A stretch of DNA of 63,279 nt, filler included, from Asterionella formosa (Eukaryota): assembly GCA_002256025.1 (NCBI GenBank). It is 14 parts of 14 records of this genome, joined end to end, with 100 filler letters (N's around TTAATTAATTAA, not from the genome) between each part and the next. Parts side by side here need not be neighbours in the genome. Positions count along the whole stretch, not along the records: positions 1 to 22,657 come from NKIB01002653.1; 13 more parts are not named here. One strand, 5' to 3'. The first letter of the stretch is position 1. Every line of letters starts with the position of its first letter. The notes under the pieces were generated by a model, which made no database searches, was not told where the DNA came from, and saw only the letters and a list, made by a program, of their open reading frames with translations. The position numbers were made by a program, and so were the translations under genes. Positions 558-51,928 of the stretch are shown here, one piece after another.

Positions 558-915
558 CCGGTGTACCGGTAGCTGAAAGAAAATGATGCATATAAAGTAG
601 TGCTGCGGGCGGCGGGCGGCGGGCAGTTCTGCAATAGGGTCCGTCATCGACCAGTTTATTCGTGGTAGTTCCGGTATGTACAGTTCGGTACCAGGGGTAG
701 GGTTAATATTTACAGTCCAGCCCTGTGGTACGACCACCGCTACCAGTACCTGCTAGACGTACTCGGAGTACTGGTAAGATCGAAGATGATGATAATGATG
801 AACAAATTGTGAGGAAGTGCGTGATGATATGTATGATAAATAAATACCAAAATTCCTGGTACGTAGTGGCGCCGACGGATCAAGATGTTCTCATATACAG
901 GAGATCTGTGAACAC

Positions 916-1575
916 ATGTCACCAATCATCATGTCAGTCGTTCAGCTGAAACGGCATCATATCTGGGGTTGCCTGCTACTCCTTCTAACACTAATTCGTT
1001 CCGCAGAATCGTTCGTGCAGCGAGCAATTCAAATAAGGAGTACCTCGACTGGGAATCCGTCGACAAGTTGTCTATTTCTGGCCAGAAGCAAAAAGAAGAA
1101 GAAGCCCAAGGGTAACATTATTGCTCTTAACCGAATCGCTTATCGCAATTACGAAATACTTGCAACGCTTGAGGCTGGCATTTCTCTCACTGGAACCGAA
1201 GTCAAATCCATTCGAGATGGCAAGATGAACATCCGAGATGGATTCGTGCGCGGAGCATTGGGTGGCAACAGGGGGCTTATCCTGTTTAATGTGCACATTG
1301 GAAAGCATTCCATGAGTGCAGAATACTTTCAACACGAAGAACGACGGGCACGCCCTCTGCTTGTTCACAAGGAAGAAGCTCGCAAATGGAAACAATCGAC
1401 TGAGCAAGATGGTATGACAATTGTCCCTCTCAAGGCATATTTTAGTGAACAAAATAGAGTCAAACTAGAAATTGCACTTTGTCGAGGAAAGAACGTCAGA
1501 GACAAGCGAGAGGACATAAAAGCGCGGGAGGCGAAACGAGAAGATAATCGTATCATTAAGAACTTTAGGATATAA
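916..1575 (+). CDS. smpB: SsrA-binding protein SmpB, nucleus-encoded with a bipartite plastid-targeting presequence
   Basis: SmpB motifs NRIAYRNYEILATLEAGISLTGTEVKSIR, LLVHKEE, GMTIVPLKAYF and RGK..DKRE.IK.RE. The N-terminus has a hydrophobic signal peptide ending SAES-F followed by an S/T/R-rich transit peptide. The start is 916 or 931. Confidence 0.95.
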   Translation: MSPIIMSVVQLKRHHIWGCLLLLLTLIRSAESFVQRAIQIRSTSTGNPSTSCLFLARSKKKKKPKGNIIALNRIAYRNYEILATLEAGISLTGTEVKSIRDGKMNIRDGFVRGALGGNRGLILFNVHIGKHSMSAEYFQHEERRARPLLVHKEEARKWKQSTEQDGMTIVPLKAYFSEQNRVKLEIALCRGKNVRDKREDIKAREAKREDNRIIKNFRI

Positions 1576-2795: not shown

Positions 2796-4265
2796 CCGGT
2801 CTATGTGTGATGGACTTTATATAGCGCATGATCTTCATAAAAGTGGAAATTAAAAATAGCACATCTACGACGGTACATACTTACCGGTACTTGCTTAGTA
2901 ATTACCGGTAAGTAATTGGTTTGACTCCCTACGTGAGAATTGTCGACAGACAACATCGGTACGTTGTGGTCGCTCGGTACCTGGTACCTGGAACCGTAGT
3001 CAGTCCGCCGGCAGTCCTGAAATTCTTCCATGCATTACACAAAATGCCAATGCCAGTACATGGTAGTAAGTACAGTACTCCGTCACGGTAGTAGAAACAG
3101 TCTAACAAACCAAGCAAGTTGCGGTCATTTTGCTTAAACTAACATTTTACCCTCGGATAAAAAGCTAGCTAAATATTTAGTTTCAGCAAAATTACCGCAA
3201 GTTGCCAGGACAAGGCAATTTTCATGACTCCCATGTGCTGGTAGGCCGTACACCCTACACATGGCTCAATATAAGGTTGTAATTTACTACCTGGTACCAG
3301 GGTACCGTAACAGTACTGCGATAATCATAACCACGAACAACCGGTATTCTGCTTTGTCACTATGTATGTGCTGGACAATTCATCTGTTTCAGGTTTGCAG
3401 ACAGGGTTTTACTTTTGCTCTTGCTGCTGTGAGCGATGCTAAGAATTACTATGTGTACCTATATTCATCGAAATATTACCGTTGTTATTCATATACCGTA
3501 GTGTATCATTATTTCTGTACAGAAAATGGCGTGCACTGTAAATATTTTATGATTACATACATATAAACCAGTATTTGAACAAGTAGTATGAACTACGAAA
3601 TGATATAAATGTAGACATTTGAATGTCGGACAACGTTGTTGACGTCATGAAGTGTCCATTTAAAAAAAACCAGCACGTACCAAACCAGGATGATAAATAA
3701 AAAACTGTTATTGCAGATGCGTTCTCGGGGATTGTTTCTTGCAATTTTTCTTAGCCGAAACTCTTTTTAGAACAAGTGTTGACGGCAGAATATTTCAAAA
3801 GAGTCCGCTAAAGAAAGAAAACAGTGTTAAAGCTGTACGTCTCATTTTCTTGCATTTAAATTGGGACATTGCGAGAATTCACTGGTGGTTGAATGATACC
3901 AGGCGGTTCGGCGTTATCGACGACCACACCACACGTACGCGTGATCGGGAATCACTGGTATCGATTCTACTATGCCTCCGTGTAGGACATGGGACAGTTC
4001 CCCTTTTAGGCGCTCGTTGTTCTTTGTGTTCACGTCACTACGACCTGCGCTGTTGTTTTTTCTACTTTCGGTTCCGTACATATTTTCAGCGTATGCAGCA
4101 GTGTCCTTTGGAGAACACTCACACCTTCTATGCTTGTTCCATTTCTCACCTCTATTCTTCCTCCAGCGTCAACAAAGAACTCAAAAGCTAACCTATTAAA
4201 AAGACACATTTCAACCCTCACAAACTGCAATTACTTGTTTAAGCTGCTGTTGAATAGAAGGCGAA

Positions 4266-6311
4266 ATGAACGGACACAGTGCTCTCAAGATTGACGGGCC
4301 TGCTCCAGTGTCTACAATCCCATCAGCGCCAGAATTGTCGACCTCGTCAATGGCAAATGTCATGCAGCAGCAGTTTGCTTATCAGCAACAACAATTGCAG
4401 CAGCAAATGCAACAACAGATGCAAGTCCACCAGGCGCAGCAAGCTCATCAAGCATTGCAAGCACAGCATGCTCAACTGACGCAACAAGCAGAGCGCCTGC
4501 AAAACCAAGAGCACAATCACCTTGTCCCAGGATCAACGAAATCAAGGACGGAACAAGACGCCACGCTCAACGGAGGCCAATCGAATCATGACGATGAAGG
4601 TGATCCAAACTCATCTGTCCCTAATCACCCGATTGCTGAATTTTTGTATCAATTAACAAAAATGCTCTCGGACAACAATGAAGAGATTGTTGAGTGGACC
4701 AACGGGAGGATTAAGGTGCACTACCCAGATCGGCTAGAGGGGGAAGTCCTACACAAGTACTTCAGGCATTCCAAGTTTGCCTCCTTTCAGAGACAGCTCA
4801 ATTACTTTGGCTTTCGAAAAATTGCTGGCAAAGGGAAGATGTCCCCTTGCTCGTACGTAAATGATGGGGCCACAGCTGATATTCGCAGTTTGTTGATGAT
4901 CAAGAGAAAGACTAATGGATCAGCAGCTCGCAAGGCTGCTATGGTGCAAGCTCAGCAGCAGCAGCGCCATACACATCAAACTGGTCAAACTAATATGATG
5001 GCCCCACCAGCTGGTATGATGATGCAGACTGCTCCTACTGCAGGAATGACGGCAGATTTGTTCAAGAATGCTTTTGCAGCTGCTGGTATGTCCACACAGC
5101 AAATGCAAGTTCTCCAAGGGATGGGGTTTCCTTCCCCTGGGACTATGTTCATATCAAACAATACAGCGTATGCCCAAGTTGCTGCTATGCAGGCACAACA
5201 GCAGAACGTGGCTGCACAACAAGCTGCTAATATGCAACAGAGGCAGTTGAATGAATCACTATTCTATCCTAACGACAGCGCCCTAGCCACATTTTCCCAT
5301 GGACAACGGAAAAATTCTATGGAAAACATGGCTTCAATGGCTCCTGGTGCTATGCCGTCCACTGGGTCCTTGGATGCAATGTCAAGTTTTGGAAGTTTCG
5401 GAGCCTTCGCCCAACGTCAGTCGGCATTAAATCTTGCTGCACTGTTTAGTTCTCCATTGAATTACGGAGCTCCATACGCTCCACAACCATCGTCAAATGT
5501 TGGTGCAGCTACGGCTGCCTTGAATGGCTTAGTTTCCAATGCTCCAAACCATGGTACTCCTGCACCCTTGAACCATCCAACGGCAACAGGCGCTGCTTCA
5601 GCTAGATTTGAAGCTACCTCTTCTACTCCTGTTTCAGCTGCTTTTCAATCTACAACACCTACTGCGCTCGCGGCATCCTCGCAATCGGTGGCGGGAGCTG
5701 CTACAGCCGCCTTAGCTGCTACCATGCCTTCCGGTGCAGCAACTGCAGCACTTGGAGCGGCCGGTCCTGCGTCAGCAACAGCAGCTATGCGTGAAGCGAC
5801 GTCACAAGCGAACAGCATTTTTGAAAACAATGCAAACTTGAACGCCTTGCTCGGAAAAGACGAAGAAAAGGGCAGTACCCCAGGACCTGCTCCTGGGAAC
5901 ACGTTGAATCGATTCTCGAGTAGCAACCTCCTTCGTTTGCCTTCGTCCGGGGCCTTCTTTCCTGACAGTTTCAGCAGTGTGTCGCTAAGTGGACTTATGC
6001 CTGGTATGAGTTCGAATCGGCTGAATTCTATGTTGAGTTTGAGCAGTTTCTTTTCGCGTGATCCTTCTATGGGTGACTTCACTGGAAATGGCTCAAATTA
6101 TGCCAGTACGCAGTATAATGCTCTGAGTGCTGTTCCACCATTGTCCGCACTCACTTCAGGCGCTCCCCTGAGTGTTGCTTCCTTGGCTGCACTTAGGGGT
6201 GCTGCTGCCTTTCCCTCTGTGTATCCTTCTGGGAATCCTGGACTAGCATCGGGAACTGGGGGGACTGCAGGTGTTGCCTTTGAACCAATGCAAATGCAAG
6301 ACAATCGGTAA
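4266..6311 (+). CDS. HSF: Heat shock factor (HSF-type DNA-binding domain) transcription factor, Q/A/S-rich
   Basis: The segment [10 protein letters not shown]...WTNGRIKV...[22 protein letters not shown] is an HSF DBD. The 681-aa ORF is uninterrupted. Confidence 0.93.
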
Positions 6312-7426
6312 TTCTTCAGAGGATTGCTTACAATGTTCATATAGGCAAGGGATCAAGGCAACTAAAACATATTCCAACCCAAATAATTGGGTCCTCAATA
6401 TATTTTCTTGTCATCAACGAAATGGGAATACTAGCAGGTCGAATTTGTGAAAATATGTTTACTTTTCGGGAACAGTTAGTTCAATAGTTCGTCTTCGAGG
6501 CCTTCTTCAAGGTCAAAAAAAGCCATTGGAGACTGAATCATTTGTCCTTTCGCTTATTCTTCATTGTCTACTGTACATTGTGTTCCTAGACTTCCATAAA
6601 ATTAATCAAATGGCCTGCATCAAAAATATAAATATTCTGAGCTAATTTAAATTCAAAAGCAAAATTGTTCACCATGCAAACTCACTACTGGTACTGGTAT
6701 GGCTGGGTGCAAAGTTTGAGGACATGATTGGGAAGGTTTGTACACATTTAGACCTAGTACCAAGGATAATCCTGTCCCTATCTCTTAATATATTTTCATG
6801 CAAAAATGCTTGTTGTTTTGACATCACAATAGCCATCACCAAAAGCCGCTTTTTTGTTCCTTGTTGTCATCTCAATGATCCACCTCTGATTCAAGCATTG
6901 CAAACATTTGGACTGATAGAATGAGTTGATGGATCTGCAAGGGCACTCATTCCCATTTAGTATTAAGCACACATTGGTTTTTGCAACAAGCACAAGTAAA
7001 CAGCTTGCTATTAGCTTCTAAGCAATGGAAATAATTTCCTGTTCCAACAAGCAATAATGAAGAACTCATTTTTCCCATGACATCAGAACCTACTCCACAT
7101 ATCATTGATCAATGCAAAGTATTATCTTGTCAACACTAAATCAATTAACCCTCACTTCCAAGACACTCTGATCAATTGTCTCTTCAAATCACTTCCAATA
7201 TTGATTTTGCCTTCTTCCTGGAACCTTTTCCAGTACCGGTATATCAATGGATTGTATAGCTAACAGGTACTCCTATGTACAACGGTACGGGTATGTACTT
7301 TCGGATAGCTATAAAAAAACAGAAAGAAATGAGCTTCATGTTTCGCCAAGTTCAAATTTATTTGCCGCCATCAACGCCTACTTCACAGGCGTTAGTAATC
7401 AGAAGCTAACTTGCTGCAATATTAGT

Positions 7427-8650
7427 ATGGACAGAGAAGATGATCTTCGTGTGTTAGGCGATCCGTCTGGCCAGCAAGACGCCGACTATTGGAATGAATG
7501 GTTCCAGATTGTGTGCGGAGGGGACGATCGTTCCTTTGAATGGTACACAGCGCCTTCAGAAGTCGCTCGACTGCTCAAATCATTCAACTGCAGCCAAGGC
7601 AAGAATCCTCGAATGATTCACCCTGGCTCTGGGAATTCACTGGTTCCTGTAAAGCTTCGAGATACGTTTTTCTTTCCGCATCAACATTTTGTGGTCGACA
7701 TTGCCGATGCCGCTCTCAAGCAAATGAAACGAGTTCACAATAAGTACTGTGACGGGGGAAATGAGATCAAATATCTCCATTGCAATGTGCTGGATCCACC
7801 TTTACCTTTAGATGCCGACTCGTTTGATGTTTGGGTTGACAAAGGGTTGGTCGATGCACTGTTCAAAGACTGTGAATCATCAAGTGCCTCTCAATGCCAA
7901 ACGCTTTTTGACGAGGCTCATCGATTGTTGAAGCCTTGTTGCGGTGTGCTACTTGTTATCACGATGGCAGAGGAACATTCCTTATCCTTGATTCTTAGAA
8001 ACTGGACTAGAAAATTGAACAACTCTGTTGCTATGTGGCAATCTGACTTAAATGTGTACGAATTAGAACCAGTCAGTGGTGATATGCGCCCTTTTGGTAT
8101 CGTCATGAAAATGGCGACACCCTCGGATGCCATAGAAAAAGGCATCACAACTCTCATTTGGCATCATTTTAATGGCTCAACAAAACAATTTGCTCTGGAA
8201 AATGTATTTGACACGGTCAAGAGCCTCTGTGAAGAATCGCGGAGAGAATTTCACTGCAAGCGGAACAGGGTAAACGAGAACGACATGCTTTTGACCATCG
8301 AAATGAAACCTTGGGACACGGATGTTGATTTATACGCAGTTGGCCAACTCATTACGGGGCTGGAATGGACCGTGACAGGAGGAAGAGTTATTCTTCCGAT
8401 CTGGCAACAATTCGACGACAGCGACGGGGTAAAAACATCAATTAGGGTAGTTCCTGTCGCATATGGTATATGCAAGTTGGTTCTCAAATGTTTAATAGGA
8501 TCTGACGATGTTGAAGATTTTACTGAAACACTTCGTGAATGGGACGGCGGCGGTGTCGCCCAAGATGGTTTCCAATCTGTTGATATTGATTGGGAAAAAA
8601 CGTTCCGTGTCTGTGATTTATCATCTATGGCAATCATAGGCAAGATCTAG
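7427..8650 (+). CDS. Class I SAM methyltransferase (METTL13-N/EEF1AKMT4-like) fused to an EF1B guanine-nucleotide-exchange-like domain
   Basis: MTase motifs YWNEWF, FEWY, PGSGNS, VVDI and FDVWVDKGLVDAL. The C-terminal TIEMKPWDTDVDL...VPVAYGICKL...QSVDI...GKI matches EF1B-beta GNE signatures. The likely start is ATG 7427; the ORF is open from 7247. Confidence 0.85.
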   Translation: MDREDDLRVLGDPSGQQDADYWNEWFQIVCGGDDRSFEWYTAPSEVARLLKSFNCSQGKNPRMIHPGSGNSLVPVKLRDTFFFPHQHFVVDIADAALKQMKRVHNKYCDGGNEIKYLHCNVLDPPLPLDADSFDVWVDKGLVDALFKDCESSSASQCQTLFDEAHRLLKPCCGVLLVITMAEEHSLSLILRNWTRKLNNSVAMWQSDLNVYELEPVSGDMRPFGIVMKMATPSDAIEKGITTLIWHHFNGSTKQFALENVFDTVKSLCEESRREFHCKRNRVNENDMLLTIEMKPWDTDVDLYAVGQLITGLEWTVTGGRVILPIWQQFDDSDGVKTSIRVVPVAYGICKLVLKCLIGSDDVEDFTETLREWDGGGVAQDGFQSVDIDWEKTFRVCDLSSMAIIGKI

Positions 8651-8833
8651 GGGCAAGTTTGAAGCATGATGAAATATTATGTCTTATCTAGACCTGCCCA
8701 TTGTAGGAAAAGGCAGCTTATACTCTGACCTGTGGATGATCATGAGATGAACATGACAAATTTAAAAAAAGGTAAAGTACACATAATAACTGATGAATCA
8801 TTATTATTATGTACACTATAGTTTGAGTTAGGG

Positions 8834-10301
8834 TTATATTGGATCCATAGAATCGTCATCGGGAAAGTCAAGAAATGCCATCCCTGATGAATCAATATGA
8901 AGTGAGGCTGCAGCATCTGCCTCTTGCATCTCGCTCACAGAGGTTGGTTCAACAGACGGTATCATGGCAAGATCCACCAGAGAATCGTCTCTCCTCAGCA
9001 TAGAAATGTAAGCTTGATCGTCAATCTCAAGAGATTGTTTAAGAGAGTTTCGGAAGTTGTTGCTTAACTCGTCTAGGCTGCTCTGCACGTCCATACCAAG
9101 TTGGTGTGGTTCCTTGAATGTGAACGAATTGTCCGCGGTAGTTGCGTCCACGACACTAGGTTCCGTTAGAGTATTTTGCGCGCTGACGCTGTGTCGAACT
9201 CCCTTGCCGACAGCTATTTTGGCCAGTGCTAAGTGCGATATGTTCTCGGGAGGATTCCTGAGAAATCCATTCAGTTGATGTTTGATGCCCTTACCCACAG
9301 CAACTTTTATAGTTGTTACCGATGTGGAATCATCAAGCCTCTCGCGCTTAGGTTCGCAAGGTCCGCTTTCTGCTGTTGTGCGGTGAAGAATTCCAACCAG
9401 CACAGGATCTACAGGTAGATTTGTACTGACTTGGATGTGCCCTGTGTTTGATCCGCTACGCTCTCGTTTCTTGGGGACCTCCTTCTGGATTGTAGTAGTA
9501 GTTTTTCGCTTGATTGCGAGAATACTTTTGTAATCCATTGTGGTTGCCTCGTTGACATACGAACAAGGAGACATCTTTCCTTTACCAGCCAATTTCCGAA
9601 AACCAAAATAGTTGAGCTGTCTCTGAAAAGAAGCGAATTTGGAGTGCCGAAAGTACTTGTGGAGAACTTCGCTGGCAAGTTTGTGGGGATTATGAACTTC
9701 GATTTTCCCTATTGGAGAAATGAGTGAGTCAGCAAACTTTTACGAAATAAACACATCAATTTTGAAAATTCAAGTGTTTCGTCAAAATTCAGACATGAAT
9801 GCAAGTACTCTCACCGTTGGTCCATTCAATTATTTCTTTGTTGTTATCGGTCAACATTTTGGTCAATTGGAACAAGAATTCTGCGACTGTATTGCTATTT
9901 GTTTCTATTGGTGTTGCTGGGGCGGATGGCGTTGCAGGCATAATTGGTACCAGGGCCTGCAAAGGAAACCCAGAATTTTTTTTTAAGCCTTTTGGAACAA
10001 CTCCAGATTGGGGTACTTGCATGGTCCTTACATTTTCTGAACTTGGCAACATCGACCCCGCATCGGTTCGAGTTCTTATACCGCTTTCTGCGGTCATCGG
10101 GTTCGCTACAGGTATAATAGAAAATGAAGCTTCCGAAAATGAATATTGTCTTGACGAGTTAGAAAGAATAGCGTCGATTGCTGACTCAGTTTCTGTGTTT
10201 GATATTGGGTTGAATGACTCAAGTGAGGAAGTTGATGATACTGTGACAGGTACACGCTGTTGTGTGCCAGTTATCTTGGCCGCTTCACCTCTTGATATCA
10301 T
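8834..10301 (-). CDS. HSF: HSF transcription factor, paralogue of 4266-6311; exons 10301-9815 and 9708-8834
   Basis: The GT-AG intron 9709-9814 joins IIEWTN to [51 protein letters not shown]. Confidence 0.92.
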
Positions 10302-20049: not shown

Positions 20050-21320
20050 TTAGATTTCCCCAGACTTTCGCTGGCTTGTCATGGGCAGAATAGGAGTCTT
20101 TGCTTTATTTTCAGGAGCAGAATAAATGACTGTAGCGATCACCACTAACGATGTACCGATAATGAACAGAAAGTTCGCATGGAAATCAAAAAATATAGCA
20201 GAAATAAGGCAGGAAATAATGATACTGAACGAGGTAGCAAAAACTTTTAACACGTTGTCGGCGTATTTGACGACCACCGCAACAATCAGTCCTCCCGCAG
20301 CTTGCACAGTCACCACAGTCCAGACCGTTGACGAGAACCCCCCGAGAAAGCCGTGCTCAGCCACAGCAGCGCTGTCCTTGGCATAAATAGTGAGATAGGC
20401 AATAATAATGGATGGGAGGCCCATTTGCACGTTACGAACCCACAAGGTTGTGTGGCTACCCTTTAAAATCTTTTCAAAGTAGACCCCAGAAAAGCCAGAC
20501 GTGCAGGCAGCACACAAAACAGCGACCAGTCCAACAAAGCGGTGTTGCTTGTTTTCCGCAGTTGTATGCTGATCACCACTTCCAGAAAGTTGCACAACTG
20601 CCACTCCAACTGTTAAGATAACAAGGGAAATCCATTTGGCACTGGAGAATTTTCGCTGTTGAAATGCGGACAGAGTCAGGACAATGCAAGTATTAGTGGT
20701 CGCTGTGTCCCATTCCATTGAGATATATTGGCACTCACCTGCAGCAAAATTGCACTAAAGAGAGCAGTAGTTAGAATCTTGAGCTGATAGCAGACTTGAT
20801 AAGTAGCAGCATCCAGATTTGTCAGAGCGAGATATAAAAGATTGTTTTGAACTGTGTACAGCAGCGAAGGGACGCAGAGTTTGAGCACTTCCATGGGTGA
20901 ATGTAGAACGTGCACTTGAAGTTCACCGAGCAAGTTTCCTCCAGTTTGACACGCAATGACAACGCAGCAAATGACAAATTTCATCAGCTCCATCGTTAAA
21001 ACAGCGACGGAAGCCAAGTAGAGGGGCTGTCCCGGATCTCGGTGGGTCCGGGAGATTCTCATAAGCAAGACAAGGCCCACCATTTGAGCAACCAGCAAAA
21101 AGAGGGCAGAGTACTTGATGATCTTGTCCGAGGAGTTCGACTTCTTCTTGACGACCTTCCGAACTTTTTTGATCACAACTTTTCCAGCCTTCGGCTTGCT
21201 CGAACGCTTTAGGGCCGATCCATCGCTCATGGCTGGAATCAGCTGCTCAGTTGGATCTTCACCTTCCTTGCTGCGGAAGCCACCAATTGTTTCATCGCCA
21301 TTCCTAGACGATTCCATCAT
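20050..21320 (-). CDS. SLC35A: Nucleotide-sugar transporter, SLC35A family (UDP-Gal/UDP-GlcNAc/CMP-Sia type); exons 21320-20739 and 20655-20050
   Basis: Motifs VPSLLYTVQNNLLYLA, YQLKILTTALFS, SGFSGVYFEKILK and VVKYADNVLK. The GT-AG intron 20656-20738 is in frame. Confidence 0.93.
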
Positions 21321-21933
21321 CTTTCGTTCCGTTCCACCAATCAATAAGGCGAGTTATGAGTTTGATTCTGGTTTTCAGGACGAGCAATGAAGACAGGACG
21401 CTCTATTTTTGGAACAATCGGGTCGTTAAGGAGTGAATATTGTTGAATTTGATTACCGGGACATTCATAAATTGTTACTCGACGAGCAAATTGGAAACAG
21501 TACCTGGTACCTGGTACCTGGTACCTATTATCATGTGATGTATGGTATTTCCTACGCGGGGCAAAGATTAGACTACCGATAGTCAATAAAAATATGTACT
21601 TAGCTAATATGCCGGTTATCTTATCATGTGCGTAATAGAGGCAGCAGCGGTTACAATCAATATTCCGGTATGTCTATTTCACACATTTATTTATATTCCG
21701 GTCGGTTGTTTAATAATCCTGCTAATAATATTGTACCAGGTACCTAGGTACCAGGGGTACCAGGTACCATGTCTTATGCATACGATGGCAGGTGCAGGTA
21801 GGTACAGTCACAAGTTTAAGGTTCCTGCATTTGAACCCCTATGTAGGCAAAAATGAAAATATTCCTTAGGGTTGCCGAAATTCCCTAAAACTACGAATTT
21901 CTCTGGAATAGATAAATACATGTATCAATATCA

Positions 21934-35063: not shown

Positions 35064-36498
35064 ATGATGAACAATAATAATGACATGCCGATCAGCTTGA
35101 GCGAAATTTTGGCTTCGTTTGGCTCGAACAACAATACATTAAATTCGTTGCACGAAGATGAGCAAGTGTTGTCATCAGGTACGTTGACGCCTGACTGTTC
35201 CGTATTTTCGGGCCTACATAAAACACACTATCATATGTACTGAGTCGCTGGGAGAATTTCTACGGTGCGTTTGTACTGCAGATAAGTCGCAGCGAGCAAA
35301 TTACCCCATGACCCCATTATGTACCTGTACTGCGATTGATTCTACACAGGTACCGGTAGTGTTCTGATCGGGACCTGATTCATTCTTTTGCTAACGGAAC
35401 TGTCAAACTGCATCCCCAACAGTCTATCCCAGCAGCGTCTCGAACAATCATAGCTGTCAAGGCAATATGGGCGACTTGTACAACCACTGCAGCAACTTTC
35501 ATAACAACGGAAACGGCATCACCACCACCGCCACCACAAACAACAACAACAATAACAACAACAGCAATCTGTTGGGCAACTACCACACGAACAGCAATGG
35601 CCTCGAAATGAACAACAACAACAACCTTGGACTATCCAGCGACCCACAAGAACTGATGTGGGCGCGCACAGTGTTACTGAACCATCAGCGAGAGCTTGCC
35701 ATGTCCATGCCGTCGCAAACGCTCGCTGGGAGGAAGTTCGACCCCTTTGACGATAACATGTCGGTCCATTCTTCCGCGAGCAGCAAGAAGAAGCCAGTAG
35801 AATCGTTCCCGGAGAAACTACACCGCATGCTGGAAGACGCAGAGATGGAAGGAAACTCGCACATTGTCGGCTTTTTCGCTCAAGGCAGGGCCTTTGCGGT
35901 GCATGACTCAGACACCTTTGTCAGGGCCATTATGCCCAGATACTTCACCACCTCCCGCTTTTCAAGCTTCCAGCGTCAGCTCAATCTATATGGATTTCGT
36001 AGGATCGTCGAACGCAACATGAGTGGCTTCTGCCATGAACACTTTTTACAAGGACAAAAGGAAATGGCCATTCTCATAACGAGGAAGAAGCAACGCGTTC
36101 CGGGGGGAGCAGACGATGACGCCATCACGGCAAGGCGATTGGAAGAACGGATGAACGCCAAGGGGGATGAATATTCGGTCATTAGCTTTGGATCAGCCAG
36201 TCATGGGTCCTCTTCAACCAGTGCGAGCTCGCAGCGAATGAGCATGGCAGATGCTCGACAGCAGATGGCCGATATGCGTTCATTGTTGGCATCCACCCAG
36301 CAGCATGCTGCCTCCATGCCTCCTCCAGTCCCTCGTCAACCAGACATTCCTCAGCAAAACTTTTCAACTGCTGCAATGGGATTTGGGCACATGGAGCCTA
36401 CCAACATTCCTACAAGTACTAATGCTCAAAATCATCTGCAAGATATGAGATCTTTATTACAACTTCAAGCTCAAATGCAATCAGGGACATTGAAATAA
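35064..36498 (+). CDS. HSF: HSF transcription factor, Asn-rich N-terminus; exons 35064-35178 and 35423-36498
   Basis: The DBD reads FPEKLHRML...GRAFAVHD...MPRYFTTSRFSSFQRQLNLYGFRR...HEHF. A phase-compatible GT-AG intron 35179-35422 has a CTAAC branch site. The first exon is less certain. Confidence 0.88.
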
Positions 36499-47642: not shown

Positions 47643-49612
47643 TAGACAAAGTAAATTCGTGGAAAACATATATCATTGCTAAAATGGATGCTTTCAAAGC
47701 TTAATGTACCTTTGACTTGCAATTTACTAATATCGAAAGGTATGTATAAGATGATGTGATTATTTTGTGGTGGGCATTTTCGAAGTATTAGTACTAGTTG
47801 GAAATACATAACTTTGTGATTTGGACGCAAATGACTTTTTTAAATTTCTTCTATTGTTTATGGTGGGGCATATGATTCCTCCTGGGGTTTCAGCATAATA
47901 AGCTGAATATCTGAAAATGCAGCAGGCTTTACTGGACAAATCAATTCTGACCATTATATGTATGAAGTATAGTGTTTTACAGCTGGCTGTCACCAGCACC
48001 CCCCCCCCTCCCCTTGCATGCAAATATGTATCCATCCTTCCCATCTGCAACTTTTCAGCACCACAATGATCTTGATATGCACCTCCCTGGATCTGTCAGT
48101 TTGAATGTAAGTTGTAAGGAATAAGGCAACGGCACAAGTAGTTGTGTACCAAATCTCTGTTTTTCATGGGTAAGCAAGACAAAATCTGATGTGAATTCTG
48201 TCATAGACAAGGCCAAGTGATACTCAAAATGTATTGAGTTTGTGGTGTCATGACAGAATATGTGTGACCCCTGCTCTGGTAACTTCGTATAGCATTTGCA
48301 TTGTTGAAAACTGCAATTAACTGATGGAGTTGATCACTCTACATATCCTACTAAATATTGTGTTTCAACCATTCTCCACGTATCCCTATGCATGTCCAAC
48401 ATTCCTGAAATTTACTTTTCATTAATCAAGTTGCAAGTTGCAACTGAATTATGATTTGACATCAAATATTTGTTTGATATATCAATATTTTCGTCATATT
48501 GTTCAATGCTTCTATCTCCTCATGAAAAACAAACAGAACTCTTCTTTCCAAAAGTGTGGCATTACTGTTAACTTCTCATGACAACAAGAACATGATGCAC
48601 AATCATAAAGCCCTTCTTGTTCCATTCCTGAAGAAGGTCAACACCAGAAATAATCTTGAATTTTGTAAAAGAACTTGGGATTTGCAAATGAATTATCCTT
48701 TCAAGTAGAATATTACTTGAATCTCCAATGAAATTATTTGTTTCATCTAGCTATCATTGTATTGTGGTGTTCAATGTTTGGATTTGAAAGTTCACACAAC
48801 AACATCTAAATAATAACCTTGCTTCAAAAATAGTTTCATAAGTATGTTTGTGAAGTGTAAAATGGTTCAGTCCAGCCAGTTTGAACAAAAATTCAAATAA
48901 TAGCATAATACATGACTAATGTGGCAGCATGGCTGGTATGCCAGTTAGCACTACTAGAACCGATTTCTACTACTGGTATATGCACTGCTCTTTCCAAGGT
49001 TGAATGCAATGTTCATACTGTACACTGCTCGAAGAACATAATGAGACAAGAGTGACAATATTGTTGGAGTTGGACCAGGCCGGTAGCCTACCGGTACACC
49101 GTACTATATGTGCTGTCGCAAATACCAGGAAATAGAAAGATGCCGCCTAATTCCAAACCGAGAAAGGAAATGCATGTCACACTTCTGCCGATGTGAAAAA
49201 TCTAAGAAGGAATCGAATCAGCTGGCTGATGAACGAATCTCAATATATATTGTGCTGTATATGGATATTTACATACTGTCGGTAAGTTCAGGTGCTCTGT
49301 AAAACGCATCAGGTTCTGATTCCCACGTAAACAATGACATCATTTTTTCTCATCGTCTTGACTTTTCTCCTACGACATTGAGTGCTGTGCGCAGTTAGTA
49401 TGTACATAAACAATTTTCCTATTAAACTTAAACTACCGTATTACAAACCGGTAATTATATACCTAAATATCATTATTCTAAATAATATTTATTTTATGTG
49501 TCGTATAGCCCCAAGTCCTCCTTGACAAAAATCTTCCGACTCAATCTTACGTCGCTCAATCATCATAGTTCCTTTTTTTTTTCTCGCTTTCGCTGTATTC
49601 TTTGTGTCAAGA

Positions 49613-51928
49613 ATGGCACCGCCTTTAACTCCTTCGTGGCAGTCCAATCAGCTACTCGTCCCTTCGATAGTACTTGGCTTGTCATGCGGAGTCGGCTACT
49701 TTATCGCCCACTCTGGATCCAAGCGCGTCTCGTGGGAAAAGACGTCCAGAGTCCTTGCGCGAGAGATTGTTAATCCCACGATTCCCTGGTGGCTCTTGTT
49801 GTTTGGGCAACGCGCTGTCTTCCCACTCACTGCCTGGTGGATATGGAATCAGATGGGAGAAGATGATGCAGGAGGGACTTATGGAAAGGATCCTGATTTA
49901 ACCACTCCAGGGCCGCCGAAAGATGCAACTCCCAAAAGTCGCAACGTCAAAATGGCCGTCGACGGAAGAAGCGCCTCACAGATGGACACGGTCAAAACGA
50001 AGAACTCGACTGGTGAATCTCGACCAGTGCCAAATATGGATCTTTCGGTTCTGGAACAAATTGTTGTGCCGCCTGACTTGACGAAGAAGTCATCGACTGA
50101 GCCTCAGAGATATTTGGAGATGCTCGTTCACAATGTATCGCACAAAGACCTGGTGTTGAGCTTGGACGCTAGGGACAATGGTGAGTATTGCCTGTGTCGG
50201 CCTAGATTCTCAGCCTTTGATTTGTACTCCAGACGAATCCTGGCAGCGATACCAGATAATCCTGAAATTGTTTCATTTAGTCGGTACGAACGATCGGACG
50301 CTACACCTAGGTATTCCATTGTCACCCCAAGACCAAGTCGACAGAAGAAAATTCCAGCTGGTCTCAAACTGCCTTTTGAAGACCAGCGATTGCATATTCC
50401 TTGCAACGAACTCGTTAATTTACGGGTGAGAGGCCGAGATGCTCCTCGTATCGAACGAGATGCTACCGCCACATCATCAAGGCTTCAGATCGATCATGTC
50501 TTCTTCCCCCTGCTGGCCACTCTACTGCCTCGATGGAATCAACAAATGAATCAAAAATACGCGACCTCGACGCCTGATGTCAAAAAAGTTTTGATTCTGG
50601 TCTCTGGCGTAGGAACACCCCGAAATTGGACTCACTCCATTTCCGGAAATTCAACGGAAGCGTGTGCCCAGCTCATGGAGAAATTCATTCAACTCCTACA
50701 CCCCGAAATTACTATTGTCTTGATTCATTCTCAAACAAATCTCTTTAGGTACGACGAGAACATCTTATTTGCCAAGCACGAGCTAGTGCCGCAGATTGAT
50801 GCCTACAGAGATGCTCATGCCAAAAACCTACCATACCCAGATGAAATAGATCGATCGAATCTTTCATTTGAAGTGTACGAAGATTGGCCTTTTAGTCCAG
50901 ACTGGAAGCAGTCCTTTCATATTACCTTGAGTTTTGCTGACGGAACGCCTGCTCGTACACATGCCATTCAAACGTCATTGCGACCCTACAGGCCAGACTT
51001 TTTGCACTTTTGGCAGCTCCAGACCTTTTGGCACGACACAAAAATTGTGGACGATGACATTGAAATGCATTCTTTTGAAGATATGGAGACTGTTCCTGCT
51101 ATGGATTGTTCTGATGTGCTCGACGACGAGACCAAGTCTGTAATTGTAGAAATGAATGCATTTCGACAAGAGTTCTTGGAATTGCTAGAAGGACGGAATG
51201 ATGTACGTCAATTTTGGTTACGGAAAACCAATAAGCCTGTTCTGGCTGTACTGTTGGTCCAGCCGCCAAATAAGCCAGCCATCCTGTATCGTGGAACTAA
51301 TATGGAAGTTAGTATGCCCACGGGGAGTTTGTGTGCCGAGCGCAATGTGATTGGAACTGCGTTGGCTAGCAATCCTGGTCTGAAACGAGAAGATTTGCGA
51401 ATGGTTGCAGTATTGGCTGTGCCACTACCGGACCCTGAGGAGCTGATATCAAGGCCTACCAATATCAGTCGGAATATGAGTTTTGCAAGCTATTCGAGCG
51501 TAGTGAATAACGAGGACGAAGAATGGATAATTGGTGAAAATGACGAAGAATGCACGACGGAGCGACTCGCCAATGTGGTTACAGTCCAGAAATCACCTCC
51601 AGTGTATCCATCACTTGGCCAACAAGTTCCGGCCTTTCACTTGCCGGTTCCAGCAAGTGTTGAACCAACTCCTCCTGGAACTCCAATTCGGCGTATCCAC
51701 TTATATCCACAAGCACGGGAGACAACATCCAAACCAATCATGGGTGGAAGTCGTAAACAAAAGCGCACAGTTTTGGTCCATTCTGCAAAGGATCTAAATC
51801 CACTGAAACCCTGCGGTGCTTGCAATGAGTGGCTCAAGAAGATTGCCGAGTCCAATCCCTACTTTAAGGTTGTGACTTTCACAGACGCGGGATGCTCTGG
51901 AGTCTATGTGTGTCCTTGCCAAGCGTAG
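49613..51928 (+). CDS. Large cytidine-deaminase-domain protein with N-terminal hydrophobic segments and an unassigned alpha/beta (CARF-like) middle domain
   Basis: Zn-deaminase motifs RGTNMEVSMPTGSLCAERNVIG and PCGACNEWL in an uninterrupted 771-aa ORF. The middle-domain assignment is inference. Confidence 0.85.
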   Translation: MAPPLTPSWQSNQLLVPSIVLGLSCGVGYFIAHSGSKRVSWEKTSRVLAREIVNPTIPWWLLLFGQRAVFPLTAWWIWNQMGEDDAGGTYGKDPDLTTPGPPKDATPKSRNVKMAVDGRSASQMDTVKTKNSTGESRPVPNMDLSVLEQIVVPPDLTKKSSTEPQRYLEMLVHNVSHKDLVLSLDARDNGEYCLCRPRFSAFDLYSRRILAAIPDNPEIVSFSRYERSDATPRYSIVTPRPSRQKKIPAGLKLPFEDQRLHIPCNELVNLRVRGRDAPRIERDATATSSRLQIDHVFFPLLATLLPRWNQQMNQKYATSTPDVKKVLILVSGVGTPRNWTHSISGNSTEACAQLMEKFIQLLHPEITIVLIHSQTNLFRYDENILFAKHELVPQIDAYRDAHAKNLPYPDEIDRSNLSFEVYEDWPFSPDWKQSFHITLSFADGTPARTHAIQTSLRPYRPDFLHFWQLQTFWHDTKIVDDDIEMHSFEDMETVPAMDCSDVLDDETKSVIVEMNAFRQEFLELLEGRNDVRQFWLRKTNKPVLAVLLVQPPNKPAILYRGTNMEVSMPTGSLCAERNVIGTALASNPGLKREDLRMVAVLAVPLPDPEELISRPTNISRNMSFASYSSVVNNEDEEWIIGENDEECTTERLANVVTVQKSPPVYPSLGQQVPAFHLPVPASVEPTPPGTPIRRIHLYPQARETTSKPIMGGSRKQKRTVLVHSAKDLNPLKPCGACNEWLKKIAESNPYFKVVTFTDAGCSGVYVCPCQA

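Follow-up and report, generated by a model that had tools for sequence, protein, structure and literature searches.

Apart from histone H3, no protein has as many dedicated methyltransferases directed at it as eukaryotic elongation factor 1A (eEF1A) (PMC10844748). How the individual enzymes find their sites is largely unexplained. One family, comprising eEF1A-KMT4, eEF1A-KMT2, METTL12 and METTL13-N, is defined by the Post II motif [D/E]-K-G-T-x-D. The charged residues of this motif are essential, and it lies directly after beta-strand 4, where it forms the substrate tunnel together with an N-terminal extension (PMC5737405). Three of the four human members methylate eEF1A (PMC8624817, PMC5737405); MT13-N, the corresponding part of METTL13, is reported to dimethylate Lys55 with high specificity, and the substrate of METTL12 (CS-KMT) is citrate synthase (PMC8624817). 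Domain 2 of eEF1A has a hydrophobic pocket that receives residue F163 of the yeast exchange factor eEF1Balpha, a contact worth 6.5-fold in affinity; one methyltransferase, Efm4/eEF1A-KMT2 (METTL10), is reported to put a Phe from a beta-hairpin into the same pocket, and eEF1Balpha competes with it for eEF1A (PMC10844748). Here we consider a gene from the diatom Asterionella formosa (assembly GCA_002256025.1) in which a methyltransferase of this family and an eEF1B-type exchange domain are parts of one protein. It lies at positions 7427–8650 of a 63,279-nucleotide stretch of 14 joined parts, which we refer to as the window.

An earlier note, made from the sequence alone, had read this locus as a fusion of an eEF1A-type lysine methyltransferase to an EF1B exchange-factor domain, and the fusion is real. 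The plus strand from 7427 to 8650 is one uninterrupted open reading frame (ORF) of 407 codons, with ATG at 7427, TAG at 8648–8650 and no internal stop. All of the motifs on which the note had relied are found in this frame: Y21-W22, F37-E38-W39-Y40, G67-S68-G69-N70-S71 and D138-K-G-L-V-D-A-L145 in the first half, and K294-P-W-D297, V342-P-V-A-Y-G-I-C-K-L351, Q383-S-V-D-I387 and the terminal K406-I407 in the second. By nucleotide position in the window and amino acid (aa) position in the protein, the gene divides as follows.

7427..8650, plus strand: complete single-exon coding sequence of the fusion protein of a methyltransferase and a guanine nucleotide exchange (GNE) domain (P0001); from the open frame, 64 homologues and colinear RNA-library contigs
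7475..8125, plus strand: seven-beta-strand lysine methyltransferase module of METTL13-N / eEF1A-KMT4 type, aa 17–233; from hhalign, Foldseek and the family profile
8126..8281, plus strand: less conserved middle region, aa 234–285, with small beta elements and a long helix (260–283) leading into the GNE domain; from the AlphaFold2 model and a mean identity of 0.30
8282..8602, plus strand: eEF1B-type GNE fold domain, aa 286–392, with KPWD, PVAYGICKL, QSVDI and then a family-specific DW..T; from Pfam, profile and Foldseek
8603..8647, plus strand: variable C-terminal tail, aa 393–407, in place of the canonical six-residue xx[FM]xK[ILV], here ending GKI; from the alignment and low predicted local distance difference test (pLDDT) values

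The same architecture is found well beyond this locus. A word-indexed search gave 64 homologues with identities of 29–99% and nearly full-length coverage, and the precomputed annotation of 61 of these contains PF00736 (EF1_GNE), in many cases with PF13847 too. A family profile, A1, was made from 60 of the 64, and all residue counts out of 60 given below refer to it. An exhaustive HMMER search with A1 of 1.84 billion protein representatives produced 3435 matches at E <= 1e-3 and 75 at E <= 1e-30; among the weaker matches of fusion-like length, EF1_GNE was found in 22 of the 24 scanned, the exceptions being P0145 and P0147. The fused proteins thus form a conserved family. Named fused members come from the diatoms Synedra, Attheya and Corethron pennatum and from the Parmales, a sister group of diatoms (GMI53925.1), and one derives from an MMETSP transcriptome. 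For the more distant fused members, cluster look-ups covering 30 proteins yielded Parmales and Corethron as the only names. Atlas searches returned methyltransferase clusters only, giving no range for the fusion.

The note had also proposed looking for RNA reads over the domain junction. Contigs from four RNA-library runs (three studies) match the locus at 95–100% identity and with no joints, and those of all four runs cross the junction at an identity of at least 95%. Contig X2 covers 7322 to beyond 8900, and X6 and X4 (both poly-A) cover the junction. RNA libraries can contain DNA, a caveat given by the search tool itself. The following line gives the extent of a single contig that covers the whole ORF.

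7378..8791, plus strand: contig X1, 1414 nucleotides, possibly the mRNA; the RNA label of its run is the tool's guess

In a quick, unrooted tree built by maximum likelihood from the N-terminal 260 residues of 70 rows, all METTL13-type rows and their short forms fall into one starred group (SH-aLRT support 95); the 40 fused rows, several of them long-branched, lie without exception on the opposite side of that branch. This split means that the fusion may have a single origin, and we read it as old and retained. Other architectures are built on the same enzyme module: P0147 (1171 aa) matches A1 positions 19–378 and carries a haloacid dehalogenase (HAD) hydrolase domain, with no Pfam EF1_GNE match, and in P0140 (2461 aa) a short methyltransferase segment (A1 positions 153–198) is matched in 14 stretches.

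The 5′ end is the sole uncertainty of the gene model. The frame is open upstream of 7427 as far as 7205 and contains an additional ATG at 7247, which is the start used in a public 467-aa model (P0002, 99% identical to the window protein). Homologues, by the consensus of the family alignment, start where M1 aligns, and the contigs from all four runs begin at 7322–7378, i.e. downstream of 7247. For these two reasons we take 7427 as the start codon and consider ATG 7247 less likely; the contig starts are only a hint here, and contigs cannot fix transcript ends. Part of the presumed 5′ leader is taken up by a small ORF of 26 codons (ATG to TAA, 7329–7409, plus strand), in a frame other than that of the main ORF; it falls within the X2 contig and upstream of the starts of X1, X4 and X6.

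Searches of the full-text literature, subscription-only papers being outside this scope, found no paper describing an EF1_GNE–methyltransferase architecture, in agreement with the note, whose author knew of no characterisation of it. Public databases do carry automatic names for some members, such as 'translation elongation factor EF-1beta' and 'EF-1beta/SAM-dependent methyltransferase' (SAM, S-adenosylmethionine). Enzyme family and domain are each known; their combination is uncharacterised, and its logic is plausible and testable.

The note's placing of the first half in the METTL13-N/eEF1A-KMT4/METTL12 group is borne out by fold, by profile and by motif. When the full-length AlphaFold2 model (pLDDT 90.7) was compared to known structures with Foldseek, the best match was human eEF1A-KMT4 (PDB ID: 2pxx; PMC5737405), with E 9.1e-12, a template modelling (TM) score of 0.75 on target and about 20% identity; only methyltransferases were among the matches listed, and the GNE domain was folded and searched separately. 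The same structure (2pxx_A, E 1e-6) is the only methyltransferase in the PDB with such a match to A1. Aligning A1 to A2, a profile of 28 proteins of METTL13 architecture, with hhalign gave a probability of 99.9 and E 1.1e-33 over aa 17–233 of the window protein, making MT13-N of METTL13 (eEF1A-KNMT) the closest unfused relative by profile. For the single protein, Pfam scores are just below the cut-offs (Methyltransf_31, 26.5 against 27; Methyltransf_11, 21.0 against 21.2), despite which the profile and fold comparisons identify the methyltransferase domain clearly.

The module includes the N-terminal YW...FEWY extension and the post-core segment common to METTL13-type proteins. The extension (YW..WF...FEWY) aligns with such proteins from aa 17 and is nearly invariant in the family, and the features held in common with METTL13-N are YW..F..FEWY, GxGNS, DKGxxDA and the post-core LAxxH.L..L. 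In the exhaustive search, the top unfused matches are 650–990 aa long and align to A1 positions of about 19–290. The Spermine_synth-like C-terminal domain of the METTL13 architecture was found in five of the eight long unfused relatives scanned, in none of the 24 fusion-length proteins, and not in P0001 (no Pfam match at E <= 1). Where METTL13 has MT13-C, a spermidine-synthase-like N-terminal methyltransferase, the fusion has its GNE domain. The fusion also differs from METTL13 in lying outside of the starred METTL13-type group of the tree and in one residue of Post II. Compared to eEF1A-KMT4, with which it has the Post II family motif in common, the fusion has two domains rather than one; the target of eEF1A-KMT4 is Lys36. 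Two motifs of the catalytic core are placed as follows.

7619..7639, plus strand: motif I (SAM binding), H65-P-G-S-G-N-S71; H65, G67, G69 and S71 invariant in 60/60
7838..7855, plus strand: Post II, D138-K-G-L-V-D143, i.e. [D/E]-K-G-T-x-D with Thr replaced by Leu; D138, K139, G140 and D143 invariant in 60/60

Across the family motif I reads HPGSG(N/T)S, and the acidic residue of Post I, D91, is likewise invariant in all 60. Position 141 of Post II is L in 34 and F in 26.

That the second half is an EF1B GNE domain, as the note had held, is supported by Pfam, by profile and by fold. The Pfam scan suggested at the time gives EF1_GNE (PF00736) at aa 337–387 with E 2e-6 and 28.3 bits, above the gathering cut-off of 20.8, a match limited to profile positions 34–82 of 88. 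The family profile reaches further: against the solved eEF1B exchange domains (PDB IDs: 2n51; 1b64; 1f60_B; 2b7b_B; 1ije_B) A1 gives E-values of 2e-13 to 2e-12 and covers almost the whole of each domain, for instance residues 8–85 of 91 in the 1b64 chain. A separate model of aa 260–407 (pLDDT 84.6) retrieved eEF1B or aEF1B chains at all of Foldseek ranks 1–9, with TM scores on target of 0.52–0.80; the match to 1f60_B has a TM score of 0.80 and a root mean square deviation of 3.1. From rank 10 downwards the matches are to ACT/GlnK-like modules, with weak scores. Mean pairwise identity in the family is 0.48 for the methyltransferase, 0.44 for the GNE core, 0.30 for the middle region and 0.20 for the tail. 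In conservation the GNE core therefore comes close to the catalytic core, which indicates that this domain, too, is under selection.

We compared the family to 11 canonical eEF1B proteins, found by a profile of 11 GNE parts and then aligned with the family (with the GNE part of the single protein as the only query, two candidates for short canonical eEF1B were collected and none scored). Three motifs are common to both sets, namely KP[WY]D, P.A[YF]GI.KL and VQSVDI, and the second of these contains the counterpart of the eEF1Balpha residue that enters the pocket of eEF1A.

8462..8464, plus strand: Y346, counterpart of yeast eEF1Balpha F163, within the motif P-x-[AG]-[YF]-G-I; Y in 31 and F in 29 of 60

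An aromatic residue is thus found at the F163 position in 60 of 60 fused proteins. The exchange domains of eEF1Balpha and eEF1Bdelta (PF00736; PDB IDs: 1f60_B; 1b64; 2n51; 9a9s) have the same fold as the GNE part of the fusion (TM 0.78–0.80 on target), from which they differ by a roughly 20-residue insertion in the fusion between the first helix and the PxGYG strand. The fusion protein also lacks the eEF1Bgamma-binding N-terminus and the acidic region of eEF1Balpha; for the latter, the central acidic region PF10587 has no Pfam match in P0001 at E <= 1 and is present in the canonical P0226, P0228 and P0229.

A further difference from the canonical domain is at the C-terminus. In all 11 canonical proteins xx[FM]xK[ILV] follows directly on QSVDI and ends the chain, which puts a Lys five residues after the motif; the equivalent residue in yeast, K205 (Lys205), has been proposed to displace Mg2+ (PMC4227793). 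Of the 60 fused proteins, 54 have T at this position (+5 after QSVD[IV]) and a single one has K. In place of the canonical end there is a D-W-x-x-T motif, invariant in the family and absent from the 11 canonical proteins compared, and then a variable tail, so that 10–34 residues (median 20) follow QSVD[IV]. More distant fused proteins are also without the canonical end. A canonical-type eEF1B with a normal ...SKI end is found in the raphidophyte ochrophyte Heterosigma akashiwo (P0224, partial) and in P0222, and the presence of this end in a raphidophyte makes its loss specific to the fused family rather than a general stramenopile trait.

These comparisons divide the GNE signatures named in the earlier note: KPWD, YGIxKL and QSVD are shared with canonical eEF1B, whereas the terminal KI has to be given up. 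We rejected K406 as an equivalent of K205 because it lies 19 residues after QSVDI rather than five and because a penultimate K is the exception in the family (13 of 60), for which reason the KI ending is best regarded as a coincidence of this one sequence and not a feature of the family. The last six residues are enriched in K or R (frequency 0.21 compared to 0.095 overall), with at least one basic residue in 54 of 60, and no basic position is conserved among the 60 tails. A floating basic tail could conceivably stand in place of the canonical Lys. The loss of this Lys argues against true exchange activity.

We lean, with moderate confidence, towards the interpretation that the protein is a lysine methyltransferase directed at the eEF1A family, with the GNE-derived domain serving for docking and not as a canonical exchange factor. 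The enzyme, of the METTL13-N / eEF1A-KMT4 family, would work in the cytosol as a SAM-dependent protein-lysine methyltransferase on an elongation GTPase of the eEF1A family, and its C-terminal domain, a diverged copy of the eEF1B exchange domain, would be a built-in docking module. This module would bind the surface of eEF1A that is used by eEF1Balpha, with Y346 in the domain-2 pocket, and so bring the catalytic domain to a G-domain lysine, for which the Lys55 region is the first candidate by analogy to MT13-N. As the Mg2+-displacing lysine is gone, the domain is probably no efficient exchange factor. What leads us to eEF1A is that both halves point to it independently: it is what the nearest enzymes methylate, and the appended domain is of the kind by which eEF1B binds it. 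The retention of an aromatic residue equivalent to F163 fits a docking role.

A functional analogue of the proposed docking is found in Efm4/eEF1A-KMT2, which belongs to the same methyltransferase family. Efm4 mimics the eEF1Balpha contact by a short hairpin, where the fusion carries a whole homologous GNE domain, and the target lysine of Efm4, K316, is in domain 2 of eEF1A. A similar example of an eEF1B part fused to an enzyme, again in a lineage with unusual elongation factors, is the eEF1B–kinase fusion of Thecamonas trahens, reported in PMC3938643; there the partner is a kinase rather than a methyltransferase. The word methyltransferase does not occur in that paper.

Several observations weigh against the docking interpretation. 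Family membership need not fix the substrate, as METTL12 and citrate synthase illustrate, and the T of the Post II consensus is replaced by L or F, albeit at the one position whose mutation in eEF1A-KMT4 (T132A) lowered activity without abolishing it (PMC5737405). With the canonical Lys lost, the interface has changed somewhat, and a change of partner may have come with this. According to published work, translation in most diatoms relies on the elongation factor-like protein EFL, in which the eEF1Balpha-specific contact sites are said to differ (PMC3699394, PMC3938643). The data themselves show the identities of both domains, the conservation patterns and the presence in RNA libraries; what the protein binds and methylates, at which lysine, and its lack of exchange activity are inferred. 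A complex prediction of GNE aa 286–407 with a stand-in, a 445-aa metagenomic eEF1A (L037), made with alignments unused, scored 0.00 and is no evidence either way, the partner's own fold being uncertain in at least one run and L037 not being the cognate factor. An alternative idea is that the GNE-derived part no longer binds an elongation factor and has been re-used as a generic small alpha/beta module, with a regulatory role, a role in oligomerisation or another partner, and that the methyltransferase has a different substrate. The remodelled C-terminus with its invariant DW..T and the weak fold resemblance to ACT/GlnK-like modules would suit such a change, as would the example of METTL12. We nevertheless hold it to be unlikely, given that the best conserved residues of the domain are the canonical eEF1B motifs (KP.D, P.G[YF]GI.KL and QSVD) with the pocket aromatic always present, and that the nearest relatives of the enzyme are eEF1A methyltransferases, so that both halves indicate the same protein.

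A protein that still exchanges nucleotide on eEF1A, perhaps by means of a basic residue in its tail, and that couples this to methylation of nucleotide-free eEF1A, would retain the three hallmark motifs and the fold, as this one does, and the enrichment of basic residues at the end of the tail could be understood in the same way. Such a substitute could be useful in the three EFL diatoms that are listed in PMC3938643 as having no detectable eEF1Balpha. Against this stand the Thr in place of the canonical Lys, the residue proposed to expel Mg2+ (PMC4227793), the variable length of the tail with its low pLDDT and shifting basic positions, and the absence of the N-terminal and acidic parts of eEF1Balpha; we consider a bifunctional protein distinctly improbable. 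We give practically no credence to the fusion being a read-through of two neighbouring genes or a mis-assembly, in favour of which nothing was found, as the single open frame, the recurrence of the architecture in close and distant homologues, including transcriptome-derived sequences, and the jointless contigs over the junction all contradict it. 

The elongation factors of the lineage give this gene a particular setting. Most diatoms studied use EFL, and many also keep a divergent, weakly expressed eEF1A, the function of which is presumably remodelled, while Bolidomonas has eEF1A (PMC3699394). In a survey of 2014, EFL and eEF1A with no detectable eEF1Balpha are given for Thalassiosira pseudonana, Pseudo-nitzschia multiseries and Fragilariopsis cylindrus, and eEF1A with eEF1Balpha for Phaeodactylum (PMC3938643). 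It is conceivable, and we regard it as a speculative and rather doubtful proposal, that in EFL diatoms where canonical eEF1Balpha was not detected the fusion is the surviving eEF1B-type domain as well as a dedicated partner and modifier of the divergent, low-expressed eEF1A. If true, the fusion would be a molecular trace of the replacement of eEF1A by EFL and a handle on the role of the remodelled eEF1A.

More generally, a natural fusion of a METTL13-N-type enzyme to an eEF1B domain is a 'Rosetta stone' that supports, on independent grounds, an eEF1A-family specificity of this enzyme branch. It likewise suggests a general strategy of recognition by docking where the exchange factor binds, in which Efm4 mimics the contact and the fusion protein has borrowed the domain. 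Diatoms and Parmales are a lineage in which eEF1A, EFL and eEF1B are being reshuffled, and the fusion offers a concrete gene for probing the retained divergent eEF1A; the same gene bears on whether these cells still hold an eEF1B-like activity.

The neighbours of the fusion gene in the window, which include several HSF-type factors, a glutamate-cysteine ligase, leucine-rich repeat proteins and DUF6824, fit a diatom-type nuclear genome. HSF-type DNA-binding domains are found in three ORFs, at 8837–9739 (minus strand), 4254–6308 (plus) and 35395–36495 (plus). The first of these converges on the fusion gene, with stops less than 200 nucleotides apart, and contigs X2 and X6 run over both genes. 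A nuclear ORF at 844–1572 (plus) contains a full SmpB domain (E 1.3e-46) behind an N-terminal extension of roughly 90 residues, and is presumably an organelle-targeted trans-translation factor. An LmjF365940-type CDD/CDA-like deaminase domain (E 1.3e-62) forms the C-terminal end of the 800-aa ORF at 49526–51925 (plus). The window as a whole contains 1144 N (assembly gaps) and has 41% G+C. At 20053–21353 (minus) a nucleotide-sugar transporter is split over two overlapping frames that match Pfam profile positions 3–141 and 122–315, which suggests a short intron or a frame change.

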